64,000 nucleotides of DNA, from NCBI GenBank assembly GCA_002168115.1, contig NHCC01000019.1, positions 60,288 through 124,287 of the forward strand, written 5' to 3'. The notes under the pieces are model-generated. The model made no database searches, had not been told where the DNA came from, and was given only the letters and a program-made list of their open reading frames with translations. Positions 20,513 through 54,331 of the stretch are shown here, piece by piece. The position numbers and the translations under genes are program-made. Each line of letters begins with the position of its first letter. The first letter of the stretch is position 1. The stretch is from Rhodospirillaceae bacterium TMED23. Its GTDB lineage: Bacteria; Pseudomonadota; Alphaproteobacteria; Rhodospirillales; UBA2165.

Positions 20513-21514
20513 ATGTTAGATAAGAGTTCAATAAAAGGTTCGAAAGAAAACAAATCGGCTAGAGAGTGCCTCATAGCTGTTGTAATCCCTTGTTATCGAG
20601 AAAAATCTAAAATTCTAGATGTACTTCTTAAAATTGATTCAACCATCGATAAAATAATTGTCATAGATGATGCTTGTCCAGAAAAAACGGGTGAGTATGT
20701 TGCTAAAAATTCAATTGATCCAAGAGTATTAGTAGTTACGCACTCTCAAAACCAAGGTGTTGGTGGAGCCACCATAAGTGGCTATAAAAAAGCACTTGAA
20801 CTAAATTCTGATGTCATCGTCAAAATGGATGGAGACGGGCAAATGGATACAAAAAATATTGGAAAGTTAATCAAACCTATTCTTAATGGAGATGCAGACT
20901 ACACAAAGGGTAATAGATTTTATAGTCCTGATAATTTATCAACTATGCCGAAGAGTAGGCTAATAGGAAATTTGCTGCTCTCTTTCGCATCGAAAATGTC
21001 GAGCGGATACTGGCGTATATTTGACCCTACCAATGGGTTTACAGCCATTCATAATAAAGTTTTAAAAGAACTACCATTAGATAAAATTAGTAAAGATTAC
21101 TTTTTTGAGTCAGATATGCTATTTCGTCTAAACATAACAAGGGCGGTTGTATGTGATATTCCTATGAAAGCTATTTATGCAGATGAAACAAGCACTTTAA
21201 AAATATCTAAAATTCTAATGCCGTTTTCGAAAAAACATATAATAAATGTTTTTAAAAGAATTACCTATAATTATTTCCTTCGAGATTTCAGTATAGCGTC
21301 GATTGAATTGCTAGCGAGTATAATACTAATTTTGTTTGGGGTGTTTTATGGTACCCAAGAATGGTTGATTAGTTCACAAACTGGTATTCCAGCCACAGCA
21401 GGTACCGTAATAATCGCAGCTTTGCCTATATTAGTTGGAAGTCAGTTGTTTATCAGTTTTTTAAATTTTGATGTAAATTATGAGCCCGACAAACCTATTC
21501 ATAATAAATTATAA
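20513..21514 (+). CDS. family 2 glycosyltransferase, polyprenyl-phosphate sugar transferase-like (GtrB/DPM1 architecture)
   Basis: 333 aa with GT-A motifs VVIPCYRE, DDACPE and MDGDGQ, followed by two C-terminal TM helices. Confidence 0.8.
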   Translation: MLDKSSIKGSKENKSARECLIAVVIPCYREKSKILDVLLKIDSTIDKIIVIDDACPEKTGEYVAKNSIDPRVLVVTHSQNQGVGGATISGYKKALELNSDVIVKMDGDGQMDTKNIGKLIKPILNGDADYTKGNRFYSPDNLSTMPKSRLIGNLLLSFASKMSSGYWRIFDPTNGFTAIHNKVLKELPLDKISKDYFFESDMLFRLNITRAVVCDIPMKAIYADETSTLKISKILMPFSKKHIINVFKRITYNYFLRDFSIASIELLASIILILFGVFYGTQEWLISSQTGIPATAGTVIIAALPILVGSQLFISFLNFDVNYEPDKPIHNKL

Positions 21515-21674: not shown

Positions 21675-22841
21675 ATGAGTACTAATTTCCAAGGTGGCCT
21701 ATTACCAATTGGTTTATCCGATCTCTTACCTCCAGATGCCGAATATGAAACCCATATTACCGAAGCACTCATGAATTCCTTTGCGTCTTATGGTTATGAT
21801 CGAGTTAAACCACCTTTAATTGAGTTTGAAGAAGTTCTCTTAGGCGGAAGTGGTGAGGCCACGGAGAAGCAAACTTTTCGTATCATGGATCCTGTATCAC
21901 AACGCATGCTTGGCGTGCGTGCTGACATGACAATGCAAATAGCCCGAATTGCCTCAACTCGGTTAGGTGATATTAAGCGACCAATTAGATTAAGTTACGC
22001 TGGACAAGTATTACGAGTTAAGGGTTCGGACTTACGGCCTAAACGCCAGTTTGCTCAAATTGGTGCCGAGTTAATTGGCTCTAACTCATTTCGTGCTGAT
22101 GCTGAAATTGTTTTAATGACAATAGATGCGCTGGAGAATATTGGTATTTCAGATTTAAGCGTAGACCTGTGTGTGCCTAAACTATTATCACTCATTTGTC
22201 TTGATCTTAAAATAGATTCATCATTTGAGTTAGATAACTTAAAAACGTTTTTTAATCAAAAAAATTTACCGGCAATTGAGGGGTTGAAGAAAAAGTTGGG
22301 TAGTGAGGCTGTTGAGATCTTTAAACTAATTCTCAATAGTTCAGGCTCAATCGAAACGGCTTTACCTATCTTGAAAAATATAGGATCAAACGGCTGGGCA
22401 AAAAAACAAATAGAAAACCTCGAAACCGTGGTGACCCTGCTGAGAAAGAGGGCTCCCAATCTAAAAATAACGATCGATCCTGCCGAAAGTAGAGGCTTTG
22501 AATATCATACTGGTATAACATTCTCTTTTTTTTCTTCCGGGATTAATGGAGAGATTGGGCGAGGAGGACGTTACCAAGCTTATAATTCTGAAGTTACAGA
22601 AGATGCAACTGGTGTTTCGTTATTTATTGATAGCATTATTCAGGCGTTACCCAAACCAAAAAGACAAAAAAAAATATTAGTGTCCTCATCTGATTCCTCA
22701 AAAATTAATAATTTGCGTAAAGAAGGATGGATAGTTGTTGAGTACTTCGATGATGTCAGTATAAAGAGTGAGAAAAATACTATCCAATCTGGCTGCACAC
22801 ATTACTGGGATGGCCAGAATATTATAGCGGTGAATATCTAA
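21675..22841 (+). CDS. hisZ: ATP phosphoribosyltransferase regulatory subunit
   Basis: 388 aa, a HisRS paralog pattern (LLPIGLSDLLPPDAEYE, GYDRVKPPLIEFEE, FRIMDP, RLSYAGQVLR) without an anticodon-binding domain. Confidence 0.85.
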   Translation: MSTNFQGGLLPIGLSDLLPPDAEYETHITEALMNSFASYGYDRVKPPLIEFEEVLLGGSGEATEKQTFRIMDPVSQRMLGVRADMTMQIARIASTRLGDIKRPIRLSYAGQVLRVKGSDLRPKRQFAQIGAELIGSNSFRADAEIVLMTIDALENIGISDLSVDLCVPKLLSLICLDLKIDSSFELDNLKTFFNQKNLPAIEGLKKKLGSEAVEIFKLILNSSGSIETALPILKNIGSNGWAKKQIENLETVVTLLRKRAPNLKITIDPAESRGFEYHTGITFSFFSSGINGEIGRGGRYQAYNSEVTEDATGVSLFIDSIIQALPKPKRQKKILVSSSDSSKINNLRKEGWIVVEYFDDVSIKSEKNTIQSGCTHYWDGQNIIAVNI

Positions 22842-22845
22842 TTAA

Positions 22846-24153
<1,308 letters not shown>

Positions 24154-24309
24154 TATTATTAATTTACTCGGATGATAAAAACGGGTAGTAACATAAAAAT
24201 TATGTCGGCAGAAAGTCGACAATGCAGTTAATGTGGTTATAATAAATGAATTAAATAGGAGTGCCTTTTCTATAAGTAACTTTCAAAGGCAGAGACTGAC
24301 GCTAGAAGA

Positions 24310-26490
24310 GTGATCAGATATATGGTGGATGCAATAAATAAATTAGATGGTGGTTCTGAACCGGACAGTAATTTAAAAGAAAATAAATTAACCGGACAGT
24401 TGTCTGTGCCAATTTTAAAGACAAGCAGTCAAATTAGTCCAGAAAACGATGCGGCAATTATGACTGCACAAAAACCAATATCCTTAATTAAAATCGATGC
24501 TGAAATTCCCACAAAATCTGCCGAACGATATGAGGTATATCCCAATTTGCCGCTTCCAGAGTATGATTCAGAAACAGCAAAAGCATTTACAGCGATCGAT
24601 AAAATGCAACCAGACTTATTATTATTTTGTTTGATTTGTGACCCAAATATTCCCATTCGTTTTGATGAACTTAAAAAGCTCTCAGGTCGATCATTGGGGA
24701 ATAATATTATAGTAGAAAACTATGGTAACCTTGATTGGCCTCTTTATGAACAACAATGCCTTGGAATAATTTTTCAACGTCCAGGCGGTCAGAGTATTGA
24801 TAAATATTTTAAATCTGAGGAATTCTCAGATCAAAAAAAATTAGAAATAGCAGAATTAATTCTATTGTCCAGTATTACCGCTTTAAGAAATCTAGATAAG
24901 CTTGGAGTAACTCATCGCAGTATCCGCCCTAATAATATATATTTTTCAGATTTAGGTCATGAGGATATTATTTTTGGTGAATGTGTTACAACACCGCCGG
25001 GCTTCTCTCAGTCGCTTGAGCTAGAGACCATTGAAAGAGGAATAGCTGATGAAGGTAGTCGGGGGAACGGTGACGTTAGTGATGATGTGTATGCGGTAGC
25101 AGCTACCATTTCAATTTTGCTTCGGAATACAAGTTCCTTTAACACTTTAGCTAACGACCAAATTAGTTTTAATAAGATTATTAAGAATAGTTTCAATACA
25201 TTAGTTGAGGGGCGACTAAAATCACAGAAAATATCAAAAGTTCTTGAAGGAATGCTGCAAGATAATATTGAGGGAAGATGGGGATTAAATGATATTGAAC
25301 TATGGCTGGGGGAAGAAATTATTCCATCTAGAGGATACGAGAGAGAGTCTAGAGCTTCTAAAGGGTTATTATTTGATGGTGTTGAGTGTTTTACAAAATT
25401 AACACTCGCATATTCAATGTCTCGAAATCGAAGTAAAGCCATCGAAATTATAAAATCTGAAGCATTAACTAATTGGTGTGAAAAAAGCCTAAGAGATAAA
25501 GTTTTAGCATCTAAAATTAGTCAAGTGACTGATGATTCAATTCTACAAAAAGATAGAGCCAAATATGCTGATGAACTTTTACTCTCAAAAATTCTAATAA
25601 TATTGTGTCCCACATATCCCATAAGCTATAAAAATATTCAATATACTTTAGACGGGTTTGGATCTGGATTAGCGACAGAGCTTTTAAGAGGTGGGGATGC
25701 CAAAATATACACTGAGTCGATTAGTCTGGGACTATTAAACTTTAGATTACAATTAAATAGTGATGAAAAAGTAAAAAATGAAGATAAAATTGAAATTGCA
25801 AATAAAATTAGTCGATATCTACAAAAAGCTGGTCCAGGCTTCGGAGTGGAGCGTTGTTTGTATGAGTTAAATCCTGGGTGCCCTTGTCAAAGTCCAATCA
25901 TAATCAAGGAGAATATATTTTTCAGTTCTATGTTACTTCCTACATTAGATAAAATAGTGGGTATCACAGATACCCAAAAAAGTCCCGTTGATCGGCACAT
26001 AGCAGCTTTTATCGCTACAAAAATAAAAGATGACCTAGAGCAACATCTTTCAGAGATAGGAGACTTTGATAAATCAATTCAAACACTCGGGATGCTAAAG
26101 TTACTTGTTCATATTCAAAACAATTCGAGTTCAGTCCCACTTCTCGGACTGGCTAAATGGGTGGGTGGGCTAATGAAACCATCAATCAGAGTTTATAAAA
26201 GCCGAAAACTAAGAAAAGATATTGAATCAGGCATACCTCAAATTATAAGAAATGGAAATTTAGGTGAGTTACTCAAATTAATTGATGATCCATCGCATAA
26301 AGAAGAAGATAAAATCGGTTATCAAACTGCAATGAACGAATATAAAGAAGCCGAGGAAGCTATCCTAAAAACAGAAAAGAATAGTAACCCAGAGTCTGAA
26401 ATAGCAGTCAAGACAAGCAAGCAAGCAGCATCGGTCATATCAATTTTGATCATGGTTTTTATTTCTTCACTTATACTATTGGCCAACTAA
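24310..26490 (+). CDS. C-terminally membrane-anchored protein-kinase-like protein (predicted pseudokinase)
   Basis: 726 aa. Residues ~70-335 follow a Ser/Thr kinase fold pattern with a degenerate catalytic loop, HRSIRPNN (HRD to HRS, 24913-24921), and IFG in place of DFG (24970-24978). A ~350-aa helical region follows, then a single terminal TM (AASVISILIMVFISSLILLAN). An alternative ATG start is at 24322. Confidence 0.6.
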   Translation: MIRYMVDAINKLDGGSEPDSNLKENKLTGQLSVPILKTSSQISPENDAAIMTAQKPISLIKIDAEIPTKSAERYEVYPNLPLPEYDSETAKAFTAIDKMQPDLLLFCLICDPNIPIRFDELKKLSGRSLGNNIIVENYGNLDWPLYEQQCLGIIFQRPGGQSIDKYFKSEEFSDQKKLEIAELILLSSITALRNLDKLGVTHRSIRPNNIYFSDLGHEDIIFGECVTTPPGFSQSLELETIERGIADEGSRGNGDVSDDVYAVAATISILLRNTSSFNTLANDQISFNKIIKNSFNTLVEGRLKSQKISKVLEGMLQDNIEGRWGLNDIELWLGEEIIPSRGYERESRASKGLLFDGVECFTKLTLAYSMSRNRSKAIEIIKSEALTNWCEKSLRDKVLASKISQVTDDSILQKDRAKYADELLLSKILIILCPTYPISYKNIQYTLDGFGSGLATELLRGGDAKIYTESISLGLLNFRLQLNSDEKVKNEDKIEIANKISRYLQKAGPGFGVERCLYELNPGCPCQSPIIIKENIFFSSMLLPTLDKIVGITDTQKSPVDRHIAAFIATKIKDDLEQHLSEIGDFDKSIQTLGMLKLLVHIQNNSSSVPLLGLAKWVGGLMKPSIRVYKSRKLRKDIESGIPQIIRNGNLGELLKLIDDPSHKEEDKIGYQTAMNEYKEAEEAILKTEKNSNPESEIAVKTSKQAASVISILIMVFISSLILLAN

Positions 26491-26491
26491 A

Positions 26492-27088
26492 ATGACAGAG
26501 GAGACAAATAATCAGGAGGAAAAAAACCCTAGAGTTACAGAAGAAACAGATGGAGAAGAGCCTAAGAAAAGATCCTTGCAACCATTACTATGGGTCATAT
26601 TTATTGCTATTATAATACTGGCTTTTCCAGAAACGGTTATGCTACTTTTTATTGGTATGCTCCCTACTTTCGTGGCATTTATCATTGATCGCTCGCCGCA
26701 AAAATATTTAACCTGTTGCGTTTGTGCAATGAATGTCACAGGTGTTTTTCCAGGGATCCATGAACTTTGGACAACACAAAATAATATTGCATTAGCTTTA
26801 AAAATTGTAACCAACATATTTGATTTATCATTGATGTACTTATCAGCAGCAATGGGATGGTTTATTTATTCTATCGTACCACCGATTATTAGAATTTTCA
26901 TAAAGATCATTGGCCAACAAAGAATTAACTTACTACGCGGTCAGCAACAAAACTTAACATACGAATGGGGAAAAGACGTTGCAAATATTATTATCTCTAA
27001 AGATATAGAAAAAAAATCAAATTCTAATCAACAAAATAACGAGATTAAAGAAAAACCCAATATCGCCCAATCTTCAGCTGGGCGGTAA
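26492..27088 (+). CDS. multi-pass membrane protein of unknown function, translationally coupled to the kinase-like gene
   Basis: 198 aa with an acidic N-terminus, about 4-5 hydrophobic helices and a polar Q/N-rich tail. The ATG lies 1 nt after the upstream TAA. Confidence 0.6.
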   Translation: MTEETNNQEEKNPRVTEETDGEEPKKRSLQPLLWVIFIAIIILAFPETVMLLFIGMLPTFVAFIIDRSPQKYLTCCVCAMNVTGVFPGIHELWTTQNNIALALKIVTNIFDLSLMYLSAAMGWFIYSIVPPIIRIFIKIIGQQRINLLRGQQQNLTYEWGKDVANIIISKDIEKKSNSNQQNNEIKEKPNIAQSSAGR

Positions 27089-27097
27089 AGTGAGGGG

Positions 27098-28090
27098 TCA
27101 TTGTATATGTTTTGACATAAGTTCCTTCATATCATTTGGTAAATCACTTTTAAAATTAATGCGTTTACCTGTAGACGGATGATCAAAGCCAATCAAATAA
27201 GCATGAAGAGCTTGACGGTTTAGGGATGAGATTATCGTTTCAAGATAAACCGACTCCGTTTTAATTACCCTTCTCAAATCTTTTGAACCGTAGGTGGTGT
27301 CACCTATTATTGCGTTTCCAATACTCGTCATGTGTACTCTAATTTGATGAGTACGACCTGTTTCAAGTCGACATTTAACTAATGAAGCCCAGAACTTTCC
27401 GCGTTCACCAATAGGCTTCGTAACTCGATAATGAGTAATCGCATGTTTTCCTCCTCTAGCTACTACAGCCATCTTTTTACGATTACGAGAACTACGACCA
27501 ATTTGATTCTCAATAATTCCCTCTTTATGCTTTGGAACTCCCCAAACAATTGCTTTATAAGCACGATCTAAACTATGATCCGCAAATTGCTTAGCCAAAC
27601 CACGATGAGTAGAATCATTTTTAGCAGCAACTAAAAGCCCGCTTGTGTCTTTATCTAACCGGTGCACAATTCCCGGACGAGCTACTCCGCCAATACCCGA
27701 GAGACTGCTACCGCAATGAGAAATCAGGGCATTTACTAATGTCATATCTTTGTTTCCTGCGGCTGGGTGAACGACTAAACCGGCTGGTTTATTTATAACT
27801 ATTAAATCATCATCTTCATAAACAATGTCTAAATCCATTTTTTGACCAACTGGGATAGGAGACTTCACATCTGGTATGACTATAGAAAAACGTTCACCAG
27901 TTTTTACACTACGAGATGGATTTAAGAGGATTCGGGATCCACAAGAAACATTTCCAGAAAGAATTAATGATTTAATTCTAGATCTTGATAGCTCAATTAA
28001 ACACTGGCTAAGAAATTTATCCAAACGAATATGGCCAACATTATTTTGAACTGTTACATTGAAGTTTCTTCTATTCACTTGATTATACAC
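27098..28090 (-). CDS. rluD: RluA-family 23S rRNA pseudouridine synthase (RluD-like)
   Basis: 330 aa with an N-terminal S4 domain (RLDKFLSQ), the catalytic motif HRLDKDTSGLLV and HQIRVH. Confidence 0.85.
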   Translation of the reverse strand: MYNQVNRRNFNVTVQNNVGHIRLDKFLSQCLIELSRSRIKSLILSGNVSCGSRILLNPSRSVKTGERFSIVIPDVKSPIPVGQKMDLDIVYEDDDLIVINKPAGLVVHPAAGNKDMTLVNALISHCGSSLSGIGGVARPGIVHRLDKDTSGLLVAAKNDSTHRGLAKQFADHSLDRAYKAIVWGVPKHKEGIIENQIGRSSRNRKKMAVVARGGKHAITHYRVTKPIGERGKFWASLVKCRLETGRTHQIRVHMTSIGNAIIGDTTYGSKDLRRVIKTESVYLETIISSLNRQALHAYLIGFDHPSTGKRINFKSDLPNDMKELMSKHIQ

Positions 28091-28113: not shown

Positions 28114-28482
28114 ATGTCAAAAAATAAGGCTTTAGTGTTAGTGGTTTTTAGTCTTGGGTTCATAATAATATGTGGTTTAACACTGTTAGGCTACGGGCTT
28201 TATCAGAGAGCATCAGACCCAAACTTCAAATTATTTAATTTTAAAAACAAGTCAAAAATATATGATAACCAAGTTTTAGCTAAAATCCAAAACAAGAATA
28301 AATTAATACCAAAGAAAATCAAAATTACCTTGTCATTAGACGAATGGGTACGCGATGTAAAAACTTTTAAAAATAGACTAGTAATACATATCACTACAGA
28401 CTTAAAGAAAGATAGAATTTTAATTTTAGATACAGATACTGGATTAATTATAACTAGTATTAGCCTGATTAATAAACCATGA
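28114..28482 (+). CDS. small N-terminally membrane-anchored hypothetical protein
   Basis: 122 aa with one N-terminal TM (ALVLVVFSLGFIIICGLTLLGYGLY) followed by a Lys-rich soluble part. Its stop overlaps the start of the JAMM gene (ATGA). Confidence 0.55.
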   Translation: MSKNKALVLVVFSLGFIIICGLTLLGYGLYQRASDPNFKLFNFKNKSKIYDNQVLAKIQNKNKLIPKKIKITLSLDEWVRDVKTFKNRLVIHITTDLKKDRILILDTDTGLIITSISLINKP

Positions 28483-28901
28483 TTTCGATCCAAAAGGCCC
28501 AAATCCTCGATCTCACCAAATATGCAGAAACTGAATATCCTATTGAATGCTGTGGTTTGCTTATTGGAAGGTTTGACCAAGGTAACATTATCATCGAAGA
28601 AATTATTCCAAGTCAGAATATTGCTAAAGGCGATACTCGTATTTTATTCGAAATTGATCCTCAAATTCGAATAAATACTCAAAGAAGGCTTCGCAATTCT
28701 CCTCAAAAAATTATAGGACATTTTCATTCGCATCCCGACGCCCCCCCATTGCCATCACCGACTGACCTCAATATGGCTATTGAGACTGAATTAATTTGGG
28801 CGATAGTTTCAGTCTATAGCGGTATAGTTAATGAAGTAAAAATGTATGGTATCGATATTAGTGGTAATAGCTTCAATGAAATCGATTATAGAGTTTATTA
28901 A
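28479..28901 (+). CDS. JAMM/MPN+ (Mov34) family metalloprotease
   Basis: 140 aa with an intact JAMM motif: E in EYPIECCGLLIG, then HFHSHPDAPPLPSPTD (H-x-H-x7-S-x2-D). Confidence 0.8.
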   Translation: MISIQKAQILDLTKYAETEYPIECCGLLIGRFDQGNIIIEEIIPSQNIAKGDTRILFEIDPQIRINTQRRLRNSPQKIIGHFHSHPDAPPLPSPTDLNMAIETELIWAIVSVYSGIVNEVKMYGIDISGNSFNEIDYRVY

Positions 28902-28925: not shown

Positions 28926-29855
28926 TTAAAAGCCCACCTGATCACCACCCTTTAATGACAGTCTGCTTCTTGCCTCTGCTGGAGTGGCAACCTCAAGAGA
29001 GAGATCCTCAACAATACGTCTAATTTTACTCACTTGTTCAGCATTTGATTTGGCGAGCTCACCCTTTCCAATATATAAAGAGTCTTCTAGCCCTACCCTA
29101 ACATTTCCGCCTAAAATAGCGCCTGTCGTTACAAAATTCATTTGGTGGCGACCGGCTGCTAAAATCGACCACTCATAATTCTCTTCACCAAATAACTTAT
29201 TTGCAATTCTGCGCATATGCATTAGGTTTTCGATATCCGCTCCTATACCACCTAAGATCCCAAATATTGTTTGCACAAAGAACGGTGGCTTGACCAAACC
29301 CCTATCAACGAAATGCGCTAAATTATATAAATGCCCCATATCGTAACACTCAAATTCGAAACGGACACCATGCCCCTCTCCAAGCTCTTTCAAAACCCAC
29401 TCAATATCCTTAAAAGTATTGCGGAATATAAAATCCCGGGTCATCTCAAGATATTCTGGTTCCCACTTATGTTTCCAATCAAAGGGCTTATCAAGGATAG
29501 GAAATAATCCAAAATTCATAGAACCCATATTCAAAGATGTCATTTCGGGACTTGCCTTGAGAGCTCCAGCACATCGTTCCTCTAAACTCATTCCATGCCC
29601 ACCACCTGTGGTTATATTGACAACGGCTTCAGTTGATTGTTTTATCCGTGGCAAGAACTCCATAAATGTATCTGGCGATGGTGTGGGACTACCATCAGGA
29701 TTTCGAGCATGTAAATGCAAAATAGAGGCTCCGGCATCGGCTGCAGCTATAGCACCCTCGGCAATTTCGTTAGGCGATATGGGTAAAAATTCAGACATTG
29801 TCGGTGTATGAATAGAACCTGTAACTGCGCACGTAATTATCACACTTTTAGCCAT
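28926..29855 (-). CDS. 3-keto-5-aminohexanoate cleavage enzyme family (BKACE/DUF849) protein
   Basis: 309 aa. IITCAVTGSIHTP...EIAEGAIAAADAGASILHLHARNP...VNITTGGG is the BKACE TIM-barrel pattern. An AGGAG RBS lies upstream. Confidence 0.85.
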   Translation of the reverse strand: MAKSVIITCAVTGSIHTPTMSEFLPISPNEIAEGAIAAADAGASILHLHARNPDGSPTPSPDTFMEFLPRIKQSTEAVVNITTGGGHGMSLEERCAGALKASPEMTSLNMGSMNFGLFPILDKPFDWKHKWEPEYLEMTRDFIFRNTFKDIEWVLKELGEGHGVRFEFECYDMGHLYNLAHFVDRGLVKPPFFVQTIFGILGGIGADIENLMHMRRIANKLFGEENYEWSILAAGRHQMNFVTTGAILGGNVRVGLEDSLYIGKGELAKSNAEQVSKIRRIVEDLSLEVATPAEARSRLSLKGGDQVGF

Positions 29856-29867
29856 AATTTTTTCTCC

Positions 29868-30638
29868 TTATTCGTTAAACATAGCGACAGCTCGGGTCCA
29901 ACCAGCAGAGGCTCCGCGAATTTTTACCGGAAAACAGGCAATCTCAAATCCCTTTCCAGGAAGCACTTCTAGATTATGTAATTTTTCCAAGTGACAATAA
30001 CCAATTTCCCGGCCAGCTTTGTGGCCTTCCCAAATTAGAGAAGAATCACCAGTTTTCATGTATTTATTATGAACAAATGGCGCATCCCAGCTCCAAGCAT
30101 CAGTTCCAGTAACCCTAACGCCTCTCTCCAGCAAATATAAGGTCGCCTCGCGTCCCATACCGCATCCGGTTGAAACATAATCATCAGAGCCATATGCCTT
30201 ACCGGCCGCCGTATTAACAACGACAATATCTAACTCTTCCAAATCATGTTCAATACGCTCTAACTCTTTTTCAACGTCTTGAGGCAGCACAACATAACCA
30301 TCAGGTAAATTGGTAAAATCCAGTTTCACCCCAGGTCTGAAACACCATTCGAGTGGAACTTCATCAATCGTAATGGCTCGCTCACCTTTATTCATGGTAG
30401 AATGAAAATGATAAGGAGCATCAAGGTGCGTGCCATTATGGGTATTTAGATTAATCTTTTCAATCGCCCACCCCTCGCCATCAGGCAGATCATCAACTTT
30501 TAATCCAGGAAAATAACTAACTACGTCCTCAGCAGTATCTTTGTGGGTAAAATACTCTATTCCAGGGCCAAACCCTGGTGGATCTGACACAACATCATTT
30601 TCAAGATGCATAGAAATATCTACAAAACGCCTTGCCAT
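29868..30638 (-). CDS. cyclase family protein (kynurenine formamidase-like metal amidohydrolase)
   Basis: Motif HNGTHLDAPYHF (HxGTHxDxPxH). I prefer the start at M26 of the track ORF (ATG 30638), which avoids overlap with the upstream gene. Confidence 0.8.
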   Translation of the reverse strand: MARRFVDISMHLENDVVSDPPGFGPGIEYFTHKDTAEDVVSYFPGLKVDDLPDGEGWAIEKINLNTHNGTHLDAPYHFHSTMNKGERAITIDEVPLEWCFRPGVKLDFTNLPDGYVVLPQDVEKELERIEHDLEELDIVVVNTAAGKAYGSDDYVSTGCGMGREATLYLLERGVRVTGTDAWSWDAPFVHNKYMKTGDSSLIWEGHKAGREIGYCHLEKLHNLEVLPGKGFEIACFPVKIRGASAGWTRAVAMFNE

Positions 30639-30646
30639 AATAATCT

Positions 30647-31681
30647 CTATTTGATTACTTGTGGATTGATCGGAGACCCGGTTCCCCGTGAAATTACCAA
30701 AGGCGGAGCACAAAGAAAAAACTCATATACTCCATCTTTAGCGCAATCATCAACCAATTCACGAAGATACCAAATTTCACCATGAACTATTCCGATATAA
30801 GGAATAGTAACCCAATGCCAGGGTTGATTGGTCCCATCGACCGTGGCATTCGGCCTAACTTCAATACCCCACGTATCTGAGCAAATCCCTGCTATTTCTT
30901 TTTCGTGTATCCAGTCAACCGTTTCGAAAGCGAGGCCTGGTGCATCACCCCCGCCGTAACCTCCCCATTCACCCTTATCCAAACAATCAGCCATTTGACC
31001 TGTATTAACGATGACAAAATCTCCACGCTTAATTTCGACGCCCTGTGATTTTGCCGTACGATCCAAATCATTAATTGTAATACCATAACCGTCGGCGAGA
31101 CGTTCTTTCTTCTTATATTTAGCGACGTCAAGGAGAACCCCCCTACCCACCATCTTATCAGCGAATTTTTCTATGCCATTTTTATGAGCCCCAGTTGAAT
31201 CAACAAGTGTAGCCTTATATCCGTTCCACATTTTATCACCTGCAAAAACATGCGATAATGCATCCCATTGGCTGGCACACTGTGTAGGTAGATTGATAAA
31301 ATCATCAGCATATCTTAATCCGACAGTTTTATCCTGGTTGCCAGCGGCAGCATCAGTTCCAGTGGCCATCATATGATGCAGTGGATTCCAGCGACCACCA
31401 AATAAACCATTTTGTGGACCATTTTCATCAAGTTCTAGACCCAACCTAAAAACCTTACCCTTTTTGATTAACTTTGCCGCATCAACTATATCCTGAGGAG
31501 TAATATAATTTAAAACCCCAAGTTCATCATTTTTTCCCCATTTCCCCCAATTAGAAAGTTTTCGGCCTTTGCGAACAACGTCTGCCCTCGTTAATCCTTT
31601 TTTCTTAACAGTTGATTTTTTAACTGCAGGTTTTTTTACTTTAGATTGGACCACCATTTTAGTTCTAATTGCTTTAACCAT
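30647..31681 (-). CDS. cyclase family protein with Lys-rich N-terminal extension
   Basis: 344 aa. The core begins LSNWGKWGKNDELGVLNYITP (cyclase subfamily pattern) and is preceded by MVKAIRTKMVVQSKVKKPAVKKSTVKKKGLTRADVVRKGRK. Confidence 0.75.
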   Translation of the reverse strand: MVKAIRTKMVVQSKVKKPAVKKSTVKKKGLTRADVVRKGRKLSNWGKWGKNDELGVLNYITPQDIVDAAKLIKKGKVFRLGLELDENGPQNGLFGGRWNPLHHMMATGTDAAAGNQDKTVGLRYADDFINLPTQCASQWDALSHVFAGDKMWNGYKATLVDSTGAHKNGIEKFADKMVGRGVLLDVAKYKKKERLADGYGITINDLDRTAKSQGVEIKRGDFVIVNTGQMADCLDKGEWGGYGGGDAPGLAFETVDWIHEKEIAGICSDTWGIEVRPNATVDGTNQPWHWVTIPYIGIVHGEIWYLRELVDDCAKDGVYEFFLCAPPLVISRGTGSPINPQVIK

Positions 31682-54254: not shown

Positions 54255-54331
54255 TGGGGCGTAGCCAAGTGGCCTAAGGCACCGGCTTTTGATGCCGGCA
54301 TTCGGAGGTTCGAATCCTCCCGCCCCAGCCA
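54255..54331 (+). tRNA. tRNA-Gln (anticodon UUG)
   Basis: Manual cloverleaf fold. Acceptor TGGGGCG pairs with CGCCCCA (U1-A72, typical of bacterial tRNA-Gln). Anticodon stem CCGGC/GCCGG encloses loop TTTTGAT (anticodon TTG). T arm is GGAGG-TTCGAAT-CCTCC. Discriminator G and an encoded CCA follow. Confidence 0.9.

Follow-up and report, generated by a model that had tools for sequence, protein, structure and literature searches.

A tail-anchored pseudokinase family and its predicted membrane partner in Rhodospirillales-type alphaproteobacteria

What might a protein with the outline of a kinase, and an active site that appears to be lost, be doing at the bacterial membrane? The question is raised by two adjacent genes in a 64,000-nucleotide (nt) stretch of Rhodospirillaceae bacterium TMED23 (contig NHCC01000019.1, positions 60,288 to 124,287; the window, in what follows). 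The first gene encodes a long protein of 726 amino acids (aa) and the second, hereafter the partner gene, a protein of 198 aa. The original prediction, made from the letters alone, described a catalytically dead pseudokinase anchored by its tail and translationally coupled to a multi-pass membrane protein. The two open reading frames (ORFs), their junction and the motifs on which it relied were all found at the positions given for them. Here, we propose that in Rhodospirillales-type alphaproteobacteria the two proteins form a complex at the inner membrane, where the kinase fold would serve as a scaffold or sensor and not as a catalyst; we put the probability of this reading at roughly 55%.

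We asked whether the kinase fold read from the catalytic-loop context could be recovered by profile and structure comparison. The window protein alone gave no match in a Pfam search, and its best match among the PDB kinases reached E = 1.2e-3. A 16-sequence profile of the family matched WNK1 in the PDB at 1e-4, and a 64-sequence profile matched MAPKAP kinases 2 and 3 (MK2 and MK3) at E = 8.4e-13, with 474 PDB sequences at E<=1e-3. The Pfam Pkinase model (PF00069) was matched at E<=1 by 14 of 16 close relatives (best 1.5e-9), most family members scoring under its gathering threshold. We also modelled the long protein with AlphaFold. With 64 diverse sequences as input, the model reached a predicted local distance difference test score (pLDDT) of 88.7 and a predicted template-modelling score of 0.83, while 16 close sequences gave a pLDDT of 51. 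The model runs from a disordered stretch (1-70) through a kinase fold (74-335) and an all-helical part with two beta-hairpins (about 350-691) to a terminal helix (697-725), and it holds every kinase secondary-structure element from beta1 to alphaI. When this model was compared with the PDB using Foldseek, 1676 matches were returned at E<=1e-3, with WNK3 (2.2e-8) and PknB on top at target template-modelling scores (TM-scores) of 0.71-0.77; among the matches listed, 50 of 50 were protein kinases. Because profile homology and predicted structure agree, we take the fold to be real: both indicate that the long protein carries a protein-kinase-like fold of the Hanks type (PF00069 superfamily), as had been proposed.

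A pseudokinase is defined as lacking one or more of three residues, namely the VAIK Lys, the HRD Asp and the DFG Asp (10.1101/2025.01.12.632604). We read the catalytic columns from an alignment of 159 full-length relatives, in which positions were equated via the MK2 profile alignment; counts out of 159 refer to this set throughout. Two of the three residues are lost family-wide within the kinase fold. The beta3 Lys has given way mainly to Ile, Val or Leu, and the Asp of HRD, already read as Ser in the original prediction, survives in a single relative (Table 1). The HRS tripeptide aligns with the HRD of MK2 and MK3, and with the HRD or HTD of DMPK, MSK1 and PfLammer. No GxGxxG loop was found in the beta1-beta2 segment of either the window protein or the family consensus, again as first claimed. 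The reading of the third residue had to be revised, however. I-F-G (24970-24978) had been taken as the degenerate DFG, and one alternative gapped alignment does put I221 of this tripeptide on the DFG Asp; but the MK2 ('LGecv' vs 'LTDFG') and WNK1 ('fGef' vs 'IGDL') profile alignments place E224, three residues later, on the DFG/DLG Asp. Position 224 is acidic in 149/159 relatives (Glu in 89, Asp in 60), and the preceding G223 is Gly in 158. E224, rather than I221, is probably the DFG Asp counterpart.

In sum, the family has lost the Gly-rich loop and, of the three canonical catalytic residues, two, while both canonical metal ligands are probably kept. Canonical phosphotransfer by its members is very unlikely. 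Other positions of the fold are strongly retained: H202 is kept in 143 of the 159 relatives and R117 in 154. The best-conserved stretch of the kinase domain runs from the activation segment to alphaF (PPG..QP..E.IE...GRG.G..DD.YA.G), where P229, Q234, E239, G250-R251-G252-x-G254, D259 and Y261 are each found in about 137-157 relatives. A relocated Lys of the WNK type was considered and rejected, since Lys or Arg occupies the corresponding beta2 position in only 71/159 relatives (45%).

The kinase fold is followed by about 360 aa of helical structure. The original prediction recognised no family there, and neither did we: searched with a 17-sequence profile, residues 336-696 had no significant relative in the PDB and no family in Pfam. 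Matches to designed armadillo proteins were discarded, as they arose from one repeat-like unit (about aa 640-665) on repetitive targets, each stretch being individually insignificant; the Pfam matches GAAD and RabGAP-TBC fell below threshold. Self-comparison of the domain gave a weak sign (E = 0.26) of two units, each a beta-hairpin followed by helices. Its conservation is striking at a few positions, with C526 and D561 present in 159/159 relatives, D667 in 157 and H563 in 155; E514, R515, Y518, W389 and P437 are also near-invariant. In the AlphaFold model, this domain is predicted to pack against the kinase fold.

By hydropathy, the only hydrophobic segment of the long protein comprises aa 706-724 of 726, with nothing comparable elsewhere. 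A terminal hydrophobic segment is present in 156 of the 159 relatives, which bears out the tail anchor that had been proposed; most other hydrophobic windows among the relatives fall on alphaF, a buried helix, and they do not recur at any single position across the family. By hydropathy, the sole predicted transmembrane (TM) helix lies within the last ~30 residues of a protein with no apparent signal peptide. Because there is no such peptide and nothing follows the terminal helix, the bulk of the protein is presumably cytoplasmic. The TM helix also presents a face of small residues at i+4 spacing: 703 (Gly/Ser), 707 (Ala/Ser), 711 (Ser/Ala) and 715 (Ala/Ser/Gly/Met). Such faces are typical of tight helix-helix packing in membranes.

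The partner protein has the acidic N-terminus and the N/Q-rich tail first attributed to it. By hydropathy, it contains three hydrophobic blocks, at about 31-64, 76-90 and 102-139. Before the first of them, in the 66-72 loop and in the tail beyond the third, Lys and Arg are overrepresented; the 88-98 loop is poor in them. This pattern fits 4-5 TM helices, the number first proposed, with the N-terminus inside the cell. Among 47 orthologues, P46, P58, A62, D66, V77, N81, G84, P87, L92-W93, G122-W123, P130, L148, Q152 and W159-G160 are at least 90% conserved. Conserved polar residues lie in or beside the membrane segments, and a conserved helix, Q..R...LR..Q..L..EWG, follows the last of them. The protein matched no Pfam or PDB family, and its matches to LEF-9, EssA, ComEC and PsbX were rejected as noise (for EssA, E = 0.062 and 13.2 bits against a cut-off of 32.45).

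We then considered how widely the two genes occur and whether they stay together. An exhaustive profile search with the pseudokinase returned 2724 cluster representatives (50% identity) at E<=1e-3, of which 1060 were at E<=1e-30, and nearly all of the best 150 were full-length (about 660-790 aa). A word-indexed search found 15 relatives and, repeated with a 64-sequence alignment, the same 15. None of the relatives tested had a dedicated Pfam or NCBIfam model, and their source names are 'hypothetical protein' or 'serine/threonine protein kinase'. For the related loci we took one genome per species, giving 50 loci, and ran hidden Markov model searches of all their ORFs. Nearly all 50 are labelled alphaproteobacterial, mostly of the Rhodospirillales type; two are Hyphomicrobiales and two carry only 'Proteobacteria'. 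The labels include Rhodospirillaceae, Thalassospiraceae, Magnetospirillaceae, Dongiaceae, Thalassobaculaceae, SAR116 and Magnetospirillum aberrantis. Outside this set of loci, Azospirillum carries the family as well. The original prediction had looked to alphaproteobacteria at large; the distribution we observed covers the Rhodospirillales in the broad sense, and not all alphaproteobacteria.

In every related locus with downstream DNA, the partner gene lies immediately 3' of the pseudokinase gene on the same strand (L030, L037 and L048 end short). The reverse also holds: starting from homologues of the partner, the upstream gene was again the pseudokinase. Thus, the two-gene module that had been suggested is recovered from both directions. 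The gap between the genes ranges from -1 to about 137 nt among orthologues, being mostly <55 nt. In the window, the junction is CTAAAATG, where the partner ATG begins 1 nt past the TAA of the pseudokinase gene. Co-transcription of the pair is well supported, but because of this range in gap length translational coupling is not general; the 1-nt spacing is lineage-specific, and strict coupling, as initially proposed, is not conserved.

The usual gene order is hisZ-purA-pseudokinase-partner-(rpoH)-rluD, which occurs in MAGs (metagenome-assembled genomes) with the Rhodospirillaceae, Thalassospiraceae, Magnetospirillaceae, Dongiaceae, Thalassobaculaceae and SAR116 labels, in Magnetospirillum aberrantis and in Azospirillum. 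purA lies directly upstream in nearly all loci, including lineages sharing only 25-30% pseudokinase identity. Its adjacency is broken in L019, L026 and L048, with the pair intact; the insertions carry a glutathione S-transferase, an enolase-superfamily enzyme, ornithine decarboxylase and capsule genes, and offer no functional clue. Pseudokinase distances track those of purA (r = 0.86), and this correlation argues for vertical descent. The comparisons indicate that the module is vertically inherited, core and syntenic, and not mobile, in line with the original view of a locus set among housekeeping genes between purA and rluD. The pair has evolved about four times faster than purA, with mean distances of 1.37 for the pseudokinase and 1.29 for the partner against 0.34. 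Controlling for purA, the partial correlation between pseudokinase and partner was 0.44, compared with 0.14-0.37 for control gene pairs, a weak hint of co-evolution.

Homologues were found for both ORFs, with E values from 0 to 1e-44. Against the 82%-identical orthologue in L003, a locus from a Black Sea Rhodospirillales MAG, the ratio of nonsynonymous to synonymous substitution rates was 0.14 for the pseudokinase, 0.24 for the partner and 0.05 for purA. Because the first two values are low, both genes are read as genuine and under purifying selection. Among the relatives, two MAG loci (L008 5506-7992 and L049 5872-7959) carry the pseudokinase frame split into two ORFs, which a frameshift, an assembly error or a pseudogene could explain. 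In Azospirillum thermophilum (L053, NZ_CP029356.1, 605056-607611), the pseudokinase is named 'serine/threonine protein kinase' (WP_109331946.1) and the partner 'hypothetical protein' (WP_245986950.1). The whole hisZ-purA-pseudokinase-partner-rpoH block of Azospirillum resides on a replicon of ~0.9-1.5 Mb catalogued as a plasmid (chromid).

The fold with its degraded active site, the tail anchor, the constant pairing of the two genes and their vertical descent lead us to infer an inner-membrane complex; its physical assembly, the lack of catalysis, a regulatory output and a role at the envelope are all part of that inference. Our model suggests that the small-residue face of the tail helix would pack against the polytopic partner, and that the kinase fold and the helical domain would together act as a non-catalytic scaffold or ligand sensor. 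The conserved activation-segment region and the C-terminal domain bearing the Cys, Asp and His residues are the likely surfaces for this, and the assembly might regulate the membrane partner or relay its state. So far, there is no sign of a surprising mechanism.

Several observations weigh against this model. The most invariant residues of the protein (C526, D561, H563 and D667) sit in the helical domain and not in the kinase fold, so an enzymatic or metal site could apply there in place of a scaffold. Within the kinase fold, N209 and the acidic residue at 224 are kept, as are the near-invariant R117 and R206, and for this reason nucleotide or metal binding, or even atypical catalysis, could still occur. 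In addition, the mirror-tree signal between the two proteins is weak; the topology of the partner may comprise 4 or 5 TM helices, with its C-terminal tail inside or outside; and literature searches found neither a phenotype nor a named homologue for either gene.

These same residues underlie the strongest rival explanation, in which the protein is an atypical enzyme and not a dead scaffold. Either the kinase cleft would host non-canonical nucleotide chemistry (as in SelO, SidJ or WNK-type sites), or the Cys, His and Asp residues would form a catalytic, metal or redox centre, and the membrane partner would be a substrate or regulator. The retained N209, acidic 224, R117, R206 and H202 would suit such a cleft, and so would the glycine-rich G-R-G-x-G at residues 250-254, found in about 150/159 relatives; a centre in the helical domain could draw on the invariant C526 and D561 and on the near-invariant H563, E514, R515, Y518 and D667. 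Some so-called pseudokinases do bind nucleotide or catalyse other reactions (PMC12599244; 10.1101/2025.01.12.632604). However, the catalytic-base position varies freely among Ala, Ser, Asn and Gly with no conserved substitute, a hydrophobic residue replaces the beta3 Lys and the WNK-like basic residue is a minority feature, the Gly-rich loop is gone, and the helical domain resembles no known enzyme by sequence. We therefore regard an enzyme as unlikely, while giving it some weight. A more specific version is a long shot: the pair would be an undescribed, order-wide membrane signalling machine with a fold that only seems dead, in which N209, E/D224, GRGxG and C526/D561/H563 together form a new nucleotide-dependent or redox- or metal-sensing activity, and a new family of small polytopic membrane proteins would be the target of this activity or would gate it. 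We regard this version as clearly improbable.

The genomic context bears on the remaining explanations. Since purA stays immediately upstream at 25-30% pseudokinase identity, the module might be tied to hisZ-purA, for instance as a membrane-tethered sensor of purine nucleotides or (p)ppGpp linking a membrane process to the supply of purine and histidine; kinase folds are scaffolds for binding nucleotides, and both metal ligands appear to be kept here. But the elements for ATP binding have degenerated, purA is separated from the pair by 157 nt that include a strong promoter-like site, the three breaks of purA adjacency leave the pair intact, and hisZ-purA is itself an ancient pairing in proteobacteria, so we find this link quite doubtful. 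It is similarly doubtful that the two genes are mere neighbours with independent functions, the pseudokinase acting alone and perhaps as a homo-oligomer through its TM helix. Small-xxx-small faces are also generally known to drive homodimerisation, the gap reaches about 137 nt in some lineages and the mirror-tree signal is modest; yet same-strand adjacency holds in all informative loci and in both directions, outlasts breaks in the surrounding synteny and is accompanied by similarly fast rates in the two proteins. Finally, an anti-phage defence or mobile-element kinase was brought up by matches to NCBIfam MADS6 (E = 2.2e-4) and, in PADLOC, to MkoA of Mokosh (E = 7.8e-8) and PD-T4-6 (E = 4.5e-4). 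These cover the kinase domain only and lie far under their cut-offs (MADS6 at 19.9 bits vs 460), the partner has no PADLOC match, and the single-copy locus keeps its syntenic place among housekeeping genes, descends vertically and has the GC content of its flanks. We rejected this explanation, which seems to us extremely improbable.

If the protein is a non-catalytic scaffold or sensor, with which known systems should it be compared? The commonest layout of bacterial serine/threonine kinases (STKs), found in 25 of 42 families, is a kinase domain followed by a C-terminal TM helix (10.1101/2025.01.12.632604). The long protein shares with PknB-like Hanks-type STKs the bilobal fold (target TM-score up to 0.77 for PknB), the cytoplasmic position of the kinase domain, the C-terminal TM helix and a conserved Arg at the start of the C-helix (R117 here). 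It differs from them as a member of a family without the beta3 Lys, HRD Asp and Gly-rich loop. Moreover, unlike in PknB-like STKs, the TM helix stands at the very end, hence no extracellular sensor domain follows, and a domain of ~360 aa without recognisable relative is placed between the kinase fold and the membrane. WNK kinases, at or near the top in both sequence and fold similarity, also lack the beta3 Lys; they are active via a relocated beta2 Lys and keep the HRD Asp, which is absent here.

Seven bacterial pseudokinase families are recognised, namely ActPs1-3, GLW, CP1, DYD and DLHK (PMC12599244; 10.1101/2025.01.12.632604). The signature of the present family, H-R-[A/S/N/G]-I-R-P-x-N, G-[E/D]-C and L-F-A-L-[I/V]-C, is found in none of the seven as described, and it appears to be an undescribed bacterial pseudokinase family set apart from the known ones by their descriptions. 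GLW comes nearest in host range and membrane association: it is proteobacterial and membrane-associated, with a TM helix C-terminal to the pseudokinase domain and a hydrophobic residue replacing the beta3 Lys. That family is defined by Gly-Leu-Trp in place of HRD and by an LLL[L/W] beta3 motif (PMC12599244), and its members lack the DFG Asp (10.1101/2025.01.12.632604). In contrast, the loop here reads H-R-[ASNG], the beta3 motif LFAL[IV]C, and the probable counterpart of the DFG Asp has stayed acidic, which places the protein outside GLW. DLHK is characterised by linked helicase/DNA2 domains, and CP1 by a COG3899 ATPase domain and no TM helix (PMC12599244); no such domains were found here with Pfam or NCBIfam, and a terminal TM helix is present. 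Class IV lanthionine synthetases (LanL), which combine lyase, kinase and LanC-like cyclase domains in a single chain, do not account for the family either: relatives scored at most 55.8 bits against a cut-off of 650, the matches lay within the kinase portion except in P0120, where the match ran ~100 residues past it, and the helical-domain profile gave no LanC match.

The nearest functional analogues are EssB/YukC and MviN, both membrane-tethered pseudokinase scaffolds, though neither shares the architecture or the context of the present family. In the type VIIb secretion system, EssB/YukC has an N-terminal cytoplasmic pseudokinase, a single TM helix and a non-catalytic scaffold role at the membrane, alongside other membrane proteins (PMC12599244). 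EssB, however, continues past its TM helix into a large extracellular domain and is encoded in a secretion gene cluster of Firmicutes, whereas nothing follows the TM helix here and the neighbours are purA, rluD and rpoH, with no type VII secretion genes nearby. In the MviN/MurJ-pseudokinase of Mycobacterium (ActPs3), a pseudokinase on the cytoplasmic face likewise regulates a polytopic membrane protein (PMC12599244); the pseudokinase there forms one polypeptide with the MurJ flippase, and its regulation runs through PknB and FhaA, while here the genes are separate and the partner is a 198-aa protein of unknown family. The ActPs3 motifs, VALT and Lsidhpsr, also differ from those of the present family.

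Bacterial pseudokinases are barely explored, and none of the seven recognised families has this motif signature. The family is large (>1000 clusters at 50% identity), and its hosts include the abundant marine SAR116, plant-associated Azospirillum and Magnetospirillum. Because most members score under the Pkinase threshold, kinome surveys seeded on PF00069 may have missed it. A degenerate kinase fold, a 360-aa domain and a membrane partner come together in this module; all three are uncharacterised, and neither Pfam nor NCBIfam has a model dedicated to any of them. The module would add to the non-catalytic functions known for kinase folds in bacteria and, as tractable hosts exist, it is directly testable.

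Table 1 Positions of the gene pair, its domains and catalytic positions, and neighbouring features in the window. Counts are out of 159 full-length relatives.
Feature	Residues	Position in window	Strand	Basis or remark
Pseudokinase ORF	726 aa from GTG	24310..26490	+	Likely true start ATG 24322, giving 722 aa
N-terminal acidic region, predicted disordered	1-70	24310..24519	+	AlphaFold pLDDT <50 at residues 1-55 and 66-70
Pseudokinase domain, bilobal Hanks-type fold	74-335	24529..25314	+	Model, Foldseek, profile matches
Gly-rich loop region	P-L-P-E-Y-D-S-E-T-A			Family consensus PLP.LDSPSA; Gly commonest at no position
beta3 (VAIK) Lys position	I109			MK2 alignment puts K93 on I109; I 66, V 66, L 15, K 0
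C-helix Glu position	D119			Acidic in 58%
Catalytic-loop stretch, LDKLGVTHRSIRPNNIYF	195-212	24892-24945	+	
HRD Asp position	H202-R203-S204	24913..24921	+	A 86, S 28, N 18, G 18, D 1
Lys-after-HRD position	R206			Arg in 148
Catalytic-loop Asn (metal ligand in active kinases)	N209	24934..24936	+	Asn in 157
Probable DFG Asp equivalent (E224)	G223-E224-C225	24976..24984	+	E224 codon 24979-24981
Later motif of the pseudokinase ORF, DVYAVAATISILL		25084-25122	+	
All-helical domain, predicted cytoplasmic, two beta-hairpins	336-691 (~360 aa)	25315..26382	+	pLDDT mostly >90
C-terminal TM helix, tail anchor	697-725	26398..26484	+	Hydropathy score 2.69; model helix
Partner ORF	198 aa	26492..27088	+	ATG start; polytopic membrane protein
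Promoter-like site, TCGACA-16 nt-TATAAT		24216..24243	+	In the purA-pseudokinase gap; 11/12 consensus positions
Family-2 glycosyltransferase		20513-21514	+	
hisZ		21675-22841		Upstream neighbour
purA		22852-24153		Upstream neighbour
rluD		27098-28090	-	Downstream neighbour, convergent
122-aa protein and Prok-JAB/MPN-domain protein		28114-28901	+	
Three genes (BKACE, two cyclase-family)		28926-31681	-	
tRNA gene		54255-54328	+	64.6 bits

The positions of these features are collected in Table 1. Of the two possible starts of the pseudokinase gene, ATG 24322 is likelier than GTG 24310, because the homologues P0001-P0003 are 722 aa long and begin at the equivalent position (P0001 is 99%-identical). 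A purine run, AGAAGAG, lies ~12 nt 5' of this ATG. The N-terminal acidic region aligns poorly, being gap-rich and unconserved, and it differs in length and sequence among relatives. GC content of the pair region is 0.34-0.37, equal to the flanks. In the gap upstream of the pair, the promoter-like site is the top match within 24000-27300, although as a consensus match only; across the region, the total of promoter-like sites is no higher than in shuffled sequence.

Downstream, rluD ends 10 nt from the partner gene. In most relatives rpoH (sigma-32) is inserted between the two (e.g. L002 10932-11816, L053 8530-9414); it is missing here (27088-27098) and in the closest relatives L003, L001 and L025, and a tblastn search with Azospirillum RpoH found no copy anywhere in the 64-kb window. 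A functional link to rpoH was rejected, since the gene is convergent, absent from this locus and not found elsewhere in the window.

Further out, the gene upstream of hisZ encodes a family-2 glycosyltransferase that has hydrophobic segments towards its C-terminus; its synteny is confined to closer relatives within the lineage (e.g. L001-L013, L025, L027). Divergent from rluD, the gene for a 122-aa protein, which has a TM segment at its N-terminus and matched nothing in Pfam, overlaps by 4 nt (ATGA) that of a 140-aa Prok-JAB/MPN-domain protein, and this pair is syntenic in most related loci, distant ones included. Beyond it, three genes on the minus strand encode a BKACE-family enzyme (PF05853 in the orthologous locus) and then two PF04199 cyclase-family proteins; their GC content (0.41-0.44) is above that of the pseudokinase region (0.35). 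The tRNA gene is the sole Rfam match at gathering level in the window.

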